A stretch of DNA of 64,000 nt from an uncultured Cytophagales bacterium. Its GTDB lineage: Bacteria; Bacteroidota; Bacteroidia; Cytophagales; Bernardetiaceae. The stretch covers positions 925,579 to 989,578 of the forward strand of contig CAVRCG010000004.1 in the NCBI GenBank assembly GCA_963719525.1, read 5' to 3'. Below, in pieces: positions 26,199 through 28,295 of this stretch. Numbering within the stretch: the stretch's first letter is position 1; each line of letters begins with the position of its first letter. The notes beneath the pieces are model-generated. The model was not told the origin of the DNA, made no database searches, and saw only the letters and a list, made by a program, of their open reading frames with translations. A program made the position numbers and the translations under genes.

Positions 26199-26867
26199 TT
26201 AATACAACAAGCCTAATTCTTTGTAGGCTTCCCTAACATTATTTTTAAAATCTTGATACGATTCAAGTTGGTCTAATTTTCTTAAATCCAAATTATCTCC
26301 TATTTTTTTATACAATTCTGAAATATTAATTTCATCTCGCCTCTGTTTTGTGTTCTTTTTCTGAACTATTCGAATAGCTTCTTGTATTATTTCTTTTGGA
26401 TTTGCTATTGCTTCTGGATTGCGATTTATTCCTAATTGTTTATTTGTTTTTGTTGTCCCTATTTCATTTTTGAATAGTTCTTTATCTGCTAAAAGCCAAC
26501 TTTCAGTTTCTTGAAGAGGAACAAGAGCGACCAAAATTTTGCAATAGTCTTCTTCGTTTTGTTCTTTTAGAATTTTCTTTGCAGGATTTATTTTGTATTG
26601 ATAGGTATCTTTCGAAGTCGTGGTATCTGCATCTGCTTGAACACACAAAATTGTGATTCCAAATTCTTCAACCCCCTTTTTTGATGCTTCAAGAACTTTA
26701 TCTATAAATTTTTTCTCTTCTAAATCTTTTACAAATCTCACACTATAAACTTCTGGAACTTGATTACATTCAAAAGAGATTTCCTTAAAAGTTTCTATCA
26801 CAATACTTTCAAAAAAACGCCAGTCTGTTTTCCCTTCTGTCATTAATCCAATATATATTTGTTGCAT
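26199..26867 (-). CDS. DUF4276-type small protein with TOPRIM-like acidic motifs (AbiLii / split-OLD nuclease-like)
   Basis: 222 aa; N-terminal IYIGLMTEGKTDWRFFESIV (hhhhxxEGxTD, TOPRIM Glu) and later ILCVQADADTTTSKD (DxD); 6 nt downstream of the ATPase gene, same strand. Confidence 0.55.
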   Translation of the reverse strand: MQQIYIGLMTEGKTDWRFFESIVIETFKEISFECNQVPEVYSVRFVKDLEEKKFIDKVLEASKKGVEEFGITILCVQADADTTTSKDTYQYKINPAKKILKEQNEEDYCKILVALVPLQETESWLLADKELFKNEIGTTKTNKQLGINRNPEAIANPKEIIQEAIRIVQKKNTKQRRDEINISELYKKIGDNLDLRKLDQLESYQDFKNNVREAYKELGLLY

Positions 26868-26873
26868 GTTTGT

Positions 26874-28295
26874 TTAATAAGTAATGGAGTAATTTATGTT
26901 GTTTTCTTTAATTTTTTCTATCTTATCCTTTAAATTACCAAAATTAGTAGTGTCCATATATTCATTTAGAGTATAAGAAAAACGCTTTCTAAAATTTTTT
27001 GCATCTACACTAGAAGCTAACTTATTTTTATTTGTTTTTCCTGAAAAAAGACTTTGTACATTGGTTCGTTTGATAGCCACCCTTCTTGTATCATTATCTA
27101 CATCTCTTACTAAAAATGAATTTAAAAATAAGTTAATGCTTACACTTTTTTTACCATCATCTTTTATTATATAATTCAAAATTTCTCCAACAAATACAGG
27201 AGAATAAGTACTTACAATAATTTGTTGTATCAAATCATTTTCCGAACCATCAACAAATCCATCACTTATTTCTTTTAATAATTCGACCAAGTCTTTAATA
27301 TGTTCTGGATAAATTCCATTCTCAGGTTCTTCAAAACACAATGCACCTATATATTTGCTATCTTGTTCTAAGGCAGAGAGAGCCAAAACACGCAATGTTC
27401 CATCTGAAAGAGCATCTAATGAATAGAAATTTTTGTTATTATCTCTCAATTCGATAGAAAATTGTTTTTTTTCCTTGTCATCAATAGGAATAACTTCGAC
27501 AAAATAACGAACAAATTTGCCTAATCTTCCTTCTAAACATGTCAAATTATATTTATCTTCATGTTTTAACCTATGTATAAGAGCAGCCAAATTTTTTCCT
27601 GTTGTAGAAAGTACATCTGTTCCGTTTTCTTTGCTTGTCGGTTGTCGTAAATCATGTGGATTGAGTTGCAAACGTTTCCAGCTTTTCATTTCTTCTTTTG
27701 CAGCAAAAATATGAGGATAATCTGCTCTGTCAAAACTACTCAAAACAGTTCTAGTAGCAGTATTAATTTTAAAATCAATTTTTGTGTCTTTTTCCTGTGC
27801 TGTAATTGTAGTTTCGTCTATTGCTGATTTAGTCGTTTTTATAAAAAAAATCTCTTCATTTTGAGGTGTTGTTAGTTGTTCATAGGTTACTTTTACATCT
27901 TCAATACCTATCGAATTGGTAAAACGTTGTAAATGAATTTCGTAGGTTAAATGTGTATAATTTAACGCTGTTTGATTTCCCCACGCATCTTTGACCCCTT
28001 TTTTTACAGACATTTCTACACAAAATTGTATTTGAGTAGCATAATCATTTTTAGCGTACTGTGTAAAAAGTTCGATAAACTCTCCTCGTTGTTCTTTACA
28101 AGCTTTTTTAAGATTATCCGTTTCTGCTAATCTAGATAACAATTTTATGGCATCAAATAAATTAGTTTTTCCAGTTCCATTTTCTCCAGCAATTACTGTA
28201 AGAGGTGTAAACTCCATTTCAAAATCTTGAAAGGACTTAAATCCGTTGATTTTTATATTTGTTATCATTTCTTTAAAGTTTAAAATTTCATTCAA
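26874..28295 (-). CDS. AAA_21/ABC-type ATPase (AbiLi / OLD N-terminal domain-like)
   Basis: 473 aa; Walker A GENGTGKTN, signature-like LSDGTLRVLAL, Walker B ALCFEEPENGIYP, H-loop region IVSTYSP. Confidence 0.75.
   Translation of the reverse strand: MNEILNFKEMITNIKINGFKSFQDFEMEFTPLTVIAGENGTGKTNLFDAIKLLSRLAETDNLKKACKEQRGEFIELFTQYAKNDYATQIQFCVEMSVKKGVKDAWGNQTALNYTHLTYEIHLQRFTNSIGIEDVKVTYEQLTTPQNEEIFFIKTTKSAIDETTITAQEKDTKIDFKINTATRTVLSSFDRADYPHIFAAKEEMKSWKRLQLNPHDLRQPTSKENGTDVLSTTGKNLAALIHRLKHEDKYNLTCLEGRLGKFVRYFVEVIPIDDKEKKQFSIELRDNNKNFYSLDALSDGTLRVLALSALEQDSKYIGALCFEEPENGIYPEHIKDLVELLKEISDGFVDGSENDLIQQIIVSTYSPVFVGEILNYIIKDDGKKSVSINLFLNSFLVRDVDNDTRRVAIKRTNVQSLFSGKTNKNKLASSVDAKNFRKRFSYTLNEYMDTTNFGNLKDKIEKIKENNINYSITY

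Follow-up and report, generated by a model that had tools for sequence, protein, structure and literature searches.

The window analysed here is a stretch of 64,000 nucleotides from an uncultured Cytophagales bacterium of the Bernardetiaceae (contig CAVRCG010000004.1, positions 925,579 to 989,578). Its minus strand carries two adjacent, co-directional genes, A and B, which according to their profile matches are HEC-01, a candidate phage-defence system catalogued in PADLOC v2. The original prediction, read from the letters of the window, had proposed that an AAA_21-type ATPase and a DUF4276 TOPRIM-like partner form a two-gene candidate anti-phage operon, and this core proposal is supported by matches to the models of both HEC-01 proteins. 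Specifically, A matches the HEC-01A model (PDLC04184) with an E value of 8.2e-100 and 333 bits, the top of its 95 PADLOC matches, and the model length of 464 equals that of the protein. B matches the HEC-01B model (PDLC04212) with an E value of 1.8e-76, and residues 1-221 of its 222 are covered. As both proteins match the HEC-01 models best and nearly end to end, the pair is assigned to HEC-01, and the adjacency and common direction that define the two-gene system are present. HEC-01 is already catalogued and partly tested; the pair in the window is an additional, divergent member of it and not a new system.

The Pfam families that had been named were matched as well. A matches AAA_15 (3.5e-20) and AAA_21 (4.5e-20), and B matches DUF4276 (5.9e-8, exceeding the gathering score). 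The listing of open reading frames (ORFs) places the two genes 6 nt apart (26868..26873) on the same strand, as had been described, and all of the named motifs are found: the Walker A AGENGTGKTN, the signature LSDGTLRVLAL, and the Walker B ALCFEEPE in A, and LMTEGKTD together with DAD in B. The length first given for the ATPase, 473 aa, has to be revised. It corresponds to the long ORF form 28295..26874, read from the TTG at 28295. Because every profile match to A, in Pfam and PADLOC alike, begins at residue 10 of that form, the PADLOC model is 464 long, and a public protein collection contains A in exactly the 464-aa form (P0081), the true start as judged from the sequence is almost certainly the ATG at 28268 and not the TTG. 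A TAAATTTG box, read from 28305 to 28298, ends 3 nt ahead of the TTG; it fits TAnnTTTG, which we take to be the Bacteroidota -7 promoter consensus, and is a candidate element.

We inspected the linkage of the two genes in 80 fetched genomic loci encoding B relatives. The loci span Bacteroidota, Beggiatoaceae, cyanobacteria, Acidobacteriota, Anaerolineales, Chthonomonadaceae, and Syntrophobacteraceae (at least six phyla). In 76 loci, which are all of the informative ones, the gene directly upstream of B is an A homologue in the same orientation; the remaining four are contig ends with less than 400 bp of upstream sequence. The conserved co-occurrence on which the original prediction had staked its operon is found in every informative locus. 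The gap between A and B is -5 to +20 nt in 64/65 loci, and the identities of A in pairs of loci correlate with those of B (Mantel r = 0.71; none of 999 permutations reached this value, the largest permuted r being 0.23). The A-B operon is obligately linked and co-evolving, and probably translationally coupled. Clustering of all flanking ORFs of the 80 loci gave no third conserved gene, the next-largest cluster after A and B being present in 7 loci. A third system component was therefore rejected, as only A and B are common to the flanks.

The family is large. A word-index search returned 80 B homologues of about 220 aa, and an exhaustive profile search returned 1,670 clusters at 50% identity (E <=1e-3), 211 of them at E <=1e-30; more than 1,600 A homologues are found at E <1e-10. 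In eight loci (L003, L012, L031, L034, L038, L049, L050, and L059), the pair sits inside a type III restriction-modification system in the order Mod-A-B-Res, all genes being co-directional, and the identity of the flanking genes is given by MTase_III (1e-180) and REase_III (2e-282). In the Arcicella loci (L015, L016, and L018), the pair is inserted between thrA and thrB. The strict linkage, the nesting in restriction-modification systems, and the thrA/thrB insertion together indicate that A and B on their own make up a cassette, which travels between phyla and in some cases lies inside a defence system. Separately, a Ferruginibacter metagenome-assembled genome (L073) has thrA and thrB adjacent to each other and the A-B pair further downstream.

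The TOPRIM-like partner and related systems

The original prediction had pointed to a conserved Glu and a DxD motif in B. In an alignment of 38 B sequences, E11, G12, T14, D15, D79, E122, D128, E152, and K158 are invariant and D81 is conserved in at least 90%. The acidic residues also stand out in a set of 199 diverse members, in which E11 is present in 194, D79 in 197, and D81 in 194, with a Glu in two more at the last position. Conservation in this set extends to D15 (194), D128 (195), E152 (197), and E122, K158, and Y186 (199 each). The AlphaFold model of B has a predicted local distance difference test score (pLDDT) of 92 and a predicted template modelling score (pTM) of 0.89. It consists of a b-a-b-a-b-a-b core with strands at residues 3-10, 39-45, 73-77, and 112-115, followed by a helical tail. 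In this model, E11 comes directly after strand 1 and D79-A-D81 after strand 3, which is the placement of the TOPRIM motifs in their order along the chain.

The comparison of B with known structures and sequences was less productive. A Foldseek search of the B model against the PDB gave nothing significant, and a profile search against PDB sequences gave a single, spurious match. B has no match to the Pfam OLD-like_TOPRIM model, none to AriB/DUF4435 at E values up to 1, and none to the AriB, AbiLii, or mad4 models of PADLOC. With hhalign, B was aligned to P2 Old alone and to a 9-sequence Old alignment, and the 199-sequence B profile to 12 Old sequences; the motifs came into register with chance-level scores, the Old profile being narrow. 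The narrowness reflects the sampling: a homologue search with the P2 Old TOPRIM domain gave five near-identical sequences, tblastn on plasmids none, and two scans of viral contigs mostly sequences 62-100% identical. Of the structural likeness to TOPRIM domains that had been anticipated, the placement of Glu and DxD in a confident model held up; the Foldseek search gave no significant support, and the Old-profile tests stayed at chance. That B is a TOPRIM-like metal-dependent nuclease is well supported by the motif geometry and topology of the predicted structure together with two publications, as a likeness and not as a proven homology.

HEC-01 was named in 2024 as "Hma-embedded candidate 01" of PADLOC v2 (Payne et al., bioRxiv 10.1101/2024.01.29.577857). 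According to its authors, it pairs an ABC ATPase with a TOPRIM protein whose metal site was aligned to that of Bp OLD, and it is embedded in Hma systems (10.1101/2024.01.29.577857). The window pair shares the two-gene co-directional architecture of an ABC ATPase with a TOPRIM-like partner, but it is not embedded in Hma or another defence system, and its A, the most divergent member seen, has no His in the H-loop. In cold-seep microbes, HEC-01 belongs to the candidate types of highest abundance, and the same study reports that one representative gave E. coli B protection from at least one of the phages T4, T5, and T7. A survey of 2026 still lists HEC-01 as a candidate. On a published tree of defence ATPases that includes PARIS, AAA_15/21 ATPases partnered with DUF4276 proteins have been placed, and a 2025 paper on Menshen describes DUF4276 as a new Toprim member with Glu and DxD and Mad4 of the MADS system as its homologue.

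Among the other systems, MADS of Pseudomonas aeruginosa resembles the window pair in that Mad3, an AAA_15/21-type ATPase, stands beside the DUF4276-type Mad4. Deletion of mad3 or mad4 weakens defence, mad5 can be deleted only together with mad2 or mad3, and the lethality of a methylase gene deletion depends on mad3. A matches the PADLOC mad3 model (4.6e-22) and NCBIfam MAD3 (7e-37), but the latter score of 127.5 bits compares with a cut-off of 420 bits, and B has no mad4 match. In addition, no other mad genes occur among the five neighbours scanned (24976..32524), whereas MAD6-8 are mandatory in the published model of the system. Menshen consists of NsnA, NsnB, and NsnC, and DUF4276 is one among many alternative C-terminal effector domains of NsnC. 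Variants of NsnC with this domain provide the likeness, along with a weak match of A to NsnB (3e-13), but the DUF4276 protein of the window stands alone in a two-gene system.

PARIS, too, is split into an ATPase and a small nuclease, namely the ABC ATPase AriA and the DUF4435 TOPRIM nuclease AriB. It is the best-understood mechanistic analogue, its ATPase scaffold freeing the nuclease upon sensing a trigger, but A matches AriA with only 6.3e-21 and B has no AriB/DUF4435 match. In OLD proteins (P2 Old, Bp and Ts OLD) and GajA, an ABC ATPase is likewise joined to a metal-dependent TOPRIM nuclease, there within a single polypeptide, whereas the window has two proteins. The LLVEGKTE...ADCD of P2 Old resembles the LMTEGKTD...ADAD of B, the profile-profile similarity being not significant, and the matches of the GajA models (3e-13) are confined to the N-terminal P-loop region of A. 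AbiLi/AbiLii is a two-gene abortive-infection pair of an ATPase and a small partner, and A matches AbiLi with 4.1e-17; this match is partial and weak, and B has no AbiLii match. The match of A to HEC-01A exceeds those to AbiLi, AriA, and GajA by 60 to 80 orders of magnitude. Membership in AbiL, PARIS, Gabija, OLD, and MADS was therefore rejected, given the absent partner matches, the far weaker A matches, and the single chains of OLD and GajA. The original prediction had likened the pair to OLD, Gabija, and PARIS and had seen a resemblance to AbiLi/AbiLii. What stands is the pairing of an ATPase with a TOPRIM-like protein; by the models the pair belongs to none of the first three families, and the AbiL resemblance does not carry over to the family level.

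Proposed function and the divergent ATPase

We consider it reasonably probable that the window pair is a chromosomal HEC-01 acting as an ABC-ATPase and nuclease module of the kind used in defence against phages and mobile elements, with A licensing B. In PARIS, OLD, Gabija, and HEC-04, both the ATPase and the nuclease active sites are required (10.1101/2024.01.29.577857). By analogy with these four systems, A would form an ATP-dependent complex with B and keep B in check. A would sense an infection cue via its fast-evolving insert and C-terminal regions, and ATP binding or hydrolysis by A would license B to cut nucleic acid (DNA or tRNA) through a putative metal site of E11, D79, and D81, so that the invader or the infected cell would be stopped. 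Besides the HEC-01 matches, the strict linkage, and the published findings given above (among them the protection of E. coli B and the need for mad3 and mad4 in MADS defence), two observations favour a role in defence. The nesting in type III restriction-modification systems in eight loci is a defence context, and the pair evolves fast, with a ratio of nonsynonymous to synonymous rates (dN/dS) of about 0.3 vs 0.08-0.11 in its neighbours. Several points weigh against such a role. No defence gene adjoins the pair in the window, and its long-term synteny beside smc in Bernardetia-like genomes is atypical of a mobile defence island. The first HEC-01 representative tested protected against none of the phages tried (10.1101/2024.01.29.577857). 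Finally, the sequence of A has lost the H-loop His and is changed at 28 of 114 conserved positions, so the window copy may not work normally.

The motifs of A are the Walker A at residues 27-36, the QRG Q-loop at 60-62, the signature at 287-293, and the Walker B LCFEEPE at 310-316; the Walker A, QRG, LSxGTLR, and EEPE elements are invariant across the family and intact in the window. A also carries variable insert regions and a variable C-terminal extension. Its model (pLDDT 81) has SMC and Rad50 heads as the nearest folds (20.9 and 20.1, respectively), followed by the Retron Ec83 ATPase (17.6), PtuA (17.4), Retron-Eco8 OLD (16.4), GajA (14.4), AriA (14.0), and Thermus OLD (13.6), and a sequence search for solved relatives found none that is close. 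A is therefore an SMC/Rad50-head-like ABC ATPase without the coiled coil, not specifically close to AriA, GajA, or OLD.

In ABC ATPases, the H-loop His takes part in catalysis. Of the aligned A homologues, 29/30 have it, as do all full-length A sequences from the fetched loci in which the motif could be located; the A sequences of L098, L099, and L101, read directly, have VNTHSP at this position. The window A has Tyr355 instead. As this residue replaces the catalytic His, ATP turnover in the window A may be altered, with slower hydrolysis, and hence also activation or reset. The divergence is wider than this one residue. Of 114 columns with a conservation of at least 95% among 65 other homologues, 28 are changed in the window A, compared with a family median of 2 and a next highest count of 19, whereas the window B departs at 0/29 of its conserved columns. 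The mean identity of the window A to its homologues, 0.44, is the lowest in the family (median 0.58), and it is the most divergent member seen. Against Bernardetia, dN/dS is 0.29 for A and 0.32 for B and 0.11 and 0.08 for two syntenic housekeeping genes, and dN reaches 0.60 in the last 90 codons of A. Fast evolution of A-B is common to the Bernardetia-like clade: between L001 and L098, A is 63% identical and B 78%, whereas the adjoining enoyl-CoA hydratase (ECH) is 94% identical.

These data bear on a competing explanation, namely that the window copy is an attenuated, rewired, or decaying HEC-01 in which B is intact and A lacks normal ATP turnover, leaving the pair inactive or in an ATP-binding-only mode. 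Tyr355, found in the window alone, and the concentration of changes in A speak for it, as does the rearrangement of the locus, in which smc is gone about 110 nt downstream. On the other hand, the 464-codon ORF of A is intact in a genome of 30% G+C, where stops arise easily, the dN/dS of 0.29 is purifying and not neutral, and the Walker A, Q-loop, signature, and Walker B are intact. Part of the distance of A is accounted for by the window genome being the outgroup of the clade for every gene, and because there are apparent assembly frameshifts elsewhere (ftsH), a base error at codon 355 may have occurred. Weighing both sides, we regard this explanation as doubtful, though it deserves to be kept in view. 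A neutral pseudogene was rejected on the grounds of the intact ORF and dN/dS. With its intact ORF and a dN/dS above that of the housekeeping genes, the window A is, as far as the sequence tells, constrained yet quickly evolving.

Chromosomal setting and alternative roles

The window DNA is 79-86% identical to Bernardetia sp. OM2101 (L001) in conserved genes and is Bernardetia-like (Bernardetiaceae, Cytophagales). In OM2101 and four metagenomic relatives (L097, L098, L099, and L101), smc follows the pair ([A-B]-smc) in the same direction, at a distance of about 100 nt from B. Upstream of A, the flank runs from mutS to ECH and the pterin dehydratase gene (PCD) in OM2101, L097, and L098, and the contig of L101 begins just ahead of A. 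In the window, two DUF2382 genes separate PCD from A. The same two precede A in L099 and are absent in L001, L097, and L098, so the PCD-side flank is also variable within the clade. The DNA between B and smc is the most conserved of the locus, with an invariant 25 nt after the stop, a hairpin, and then the leader into smc. It is identical to OM2101 in 108/120 nt (59/60 and 49/60 in successive 60-nt blocks), compared with about 60-80% in the coding DNA of A and B. Judged by these alignments, HEC-01 has long resided in the chromosome of Bernardetia-like bacteria, directly upstream of smc and parted from it by a highly conserved leader of about 100 nt.

The hairpin in this region is likely, from its sequence, to be the operon terminator or a REP-like (repetitive extragenic palindromic) hairpin. 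At the same position, the relatives have either the GGAAAAGG-CACG-CCTTTTCC hairpin or an unrelated GACAGCT-TCCA-AGCTGTC, and two unrelated hairpin sequences at one position suggest the role of a terminator. The pattern GTAGGG-N5-GCACGC-N5-CC, a hairpin family of the window, has a second copy elsewhere in it with the same loop and a different self-complementary stem (Table 1). The 3' flank was also considered as a new small RNA or the end of a mobile cassette. Both were rejected, as there is no Rfam match and no tRNA, and the five relatives identify it as the B-smc intergenic region. A 31-codon ORF right after the stop of B was discarded, its frame not being conserved because of an indel in L001.

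In a 7-genome alignment, the window follows its relatives to about 26091 and departs after GCAACTTCCT, about 20 nt short of their smc ATG. A REP-like palindrome lies exactly there. Its GCCGTTGTTGGT element occurs in four copies in the window vs 0.05 expected, the family being located at 3094, 12116, 12250, and 26076. The sequence past the breakpoint is non-coding for 0.4 kb and then carries a lipoprotein-like gene, the IS110 transposase, and ftsH; the 64-kb window as a whole has no gene for an SMC homologue. The linkage to smc is, on this alignment, broken in the window by a rearrangement at the REP palindrome. A similar REP-like palindrome is seen upstream of A in OM2101 (L001, about 6380).

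The surroundings of the pair had been described as a mobile-rich patch of the kind where defence genes cluster. The IS110 transposase and the REP-like palindromes are there; the gene labelled as a truncated YD-repeat (24697..25698) has no Pfam match, and the scanned ORFs include no Y1-transposase remnant. PADLOC gave no match for the five neighbours scanned, and the pair is a syntenic chromosomal resident in the closest relatives, so the argument from a defence-cluster context is weak. Given the stable PCD-[A-B]-smc synteny in close relatives, the mobile patch is a secondary rearrangement beside an old, vertically inherited HEC-01 locus and not a defence island.

An alternative is that HEC-01 is a DNA-maintenance or restriction-accessory module, like SbcCD or Wadjet, that acts on plasmids or aberrant DNA or aids restriction-modification and is not primarily anti-phage. 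The nearest solved folds of A are SMC and Rad50 heads instead of AriA or GajA, the pair lies co-directionally upstream of smc in at least five Bernardetia-like genomes, it is found inside type III restriction-modification systems, and the requirement of mad3 for the lethality of methylase deletion in MADS points in the same direction. However, the smc adjacency is limited to one clade and other flanks are unrelated (e.g. thrA/thrB), one HEC-01 representative protected E. coli against phage, and the pair evolves about threefold faster than its housekeeping neighbours, as conflict genes would. We judge a maintenance role unlikely. A further reading, that A-B works or is co-regulated with the chromosomal SMC machinery as a minimal Wadjet-like DNA-surveillance module and that the window genome, with its lost smc linkage and H-loop His, shows its rewiring or retirement, seems improbable to us. 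Least credible is a selfish addiction (toxin-antitoxin-like) cassette with a toxic nuclease B and an ATP-dependent inhibitor A and no benefit to the host: a compact cassette of two strictly linked genes that carries no mobility genes and moves among unrelated sites and across phyla would suit it, but the gene order and sizes are unlike classic toxin-antitoxin pairs, the locus has long been retained vertically at one chromosomal site, and tested related ABC-ATPase/nuclease pairs act in defence, although nothing here separates addiction from abortive-infection defence, which follows the same logic.

For annotation, the locus can carry the label HEC-01, with an ABC ATPase and a DUF4276 nuclease-like protein. 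The family is abundant, as the number of B clusters attests, and the two published phage tests disagree. Our analysis adds the strict linkage and co-evolution of A and B, the invariant residues of B beyond the Glu and DxD (D15, E122, D128, E152, K158, and Y186), and the repeated nesting of the cassette in type III restriction-modification systems. It leaves the overall view of the HEC-01 family unchanged. The natural His-to-Tyr variant of the H-loop could probe whether ATP hydrolysis or binding alone is needed, and the [A-B]-smc linkage that Bernardetia-like genomes have long retained deserves note.

Other features of the window

Table 1. Positions and strands of the features of the window, counted from its first nucleotide
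Feature	Position	Strand	Description
Gene A	26874..28268	-	HEC-01A, SMC/Rad50-head-like ABC ATPase, 464 aa from ATG 28268; stop 26874..26876
Gene B	26199..26867	-	HEC-01B, DUF4276 protein, 222 aa; TOPRIM-like alpha/beta core and helical tail
TAAATTTG box	28298..28305	-	candidate Bacteroidota-type -7 promoter element, read off the sequence; 30 nt upstream of the ATG of A
Codon 355 of A	27204..27206	-	TAT (Tyr) at the H-loop position, His in the family; one transition from CAT
B-to-smc intergenic region	26091..26198	-	likely terminator and start of the smc leader; kept in the window without smc
Hairpin GGAAAAGG-CACG-CCTTTTCC	26139..26158	-	perfect 8-bp stem, 41 nt past the stop of B
REP-like palindrome GCCGTTGTTGGT...ACCAAC	26054..26087	-	exactly at the synteny breakpoint
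DUF2382 genes (two)	28543..30037	+	between PCD and A
Lipoprotein-like gene	24697..25698	-	abutting ORFs 24976..25698 and 24697..24975
IS110 transposase	23578..24582		
ftsH, split	20793..22855	+	ORFs 20793..21668 and 21671..22855
Vault-like gene	31478..33985	-	four consecutive ORFs
IS630-type transposase	39962..41282	+	two ORFs, HTH_32 (39962..40501) and DDE_3 (40575..41282)
Fic-domain protein	41792..43129	+	
Tandem units	43248..45027		four units of about 455 nt
Tandem paralogues	48964..52424	-	528 and 533 aa
GTAGGGACAATGCACGCATTGTCC hairpins	50603..50728		in two copies of a 50-nt repeat between the tandem paralogues
Second GTAGGG-N5-GCACGC-N5-CC hairpin	50631..50654		same loop as the hairpin at 26139..26158

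Several other genes of the window are fragmented. The lipoprotein-like gene past the breakpoint is broken by an in-frame stop and has no Pfam or PADLOC match. In ftsH, the frame shifts inside the Walker A region after GVLLVG, about 100 nt before 21668, and the correct frame is later resumed; the split comes either from an indel in the sequencing or from true pseudogenization of what is normally an essential gene. The four ORFs of the vault-like gene resemble one fragmented gene related to the eukaryotic major vault protein, with an MVP_shoulder match of 2.1e-32 in the last piece; this gene is absent at the same position in Bernardetia sp. OM2101.

Insertion sequences in the window include the IS630-type besides the IS110 element. 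The four tandem units are 61-82% identical to each other, and no listed ORF of at least 150 aa lies there. The two tandem paralogues are 96-97% identical in the compared 300-nt stretches and have weak AAA-ATPase_like and PDDEXK_3 (PD-(D/E)XK) matches; no PADLOC match was found for them. The Fic-domain protein (Pfam Fic, 2.6e-22) matches the PADLOC models PDC-S04 (4e-36) and SoFic (1.3e-29). It is the only other defence-like match among the scanned genes of the window and lies about 14 kb from the HEC-01 pair.

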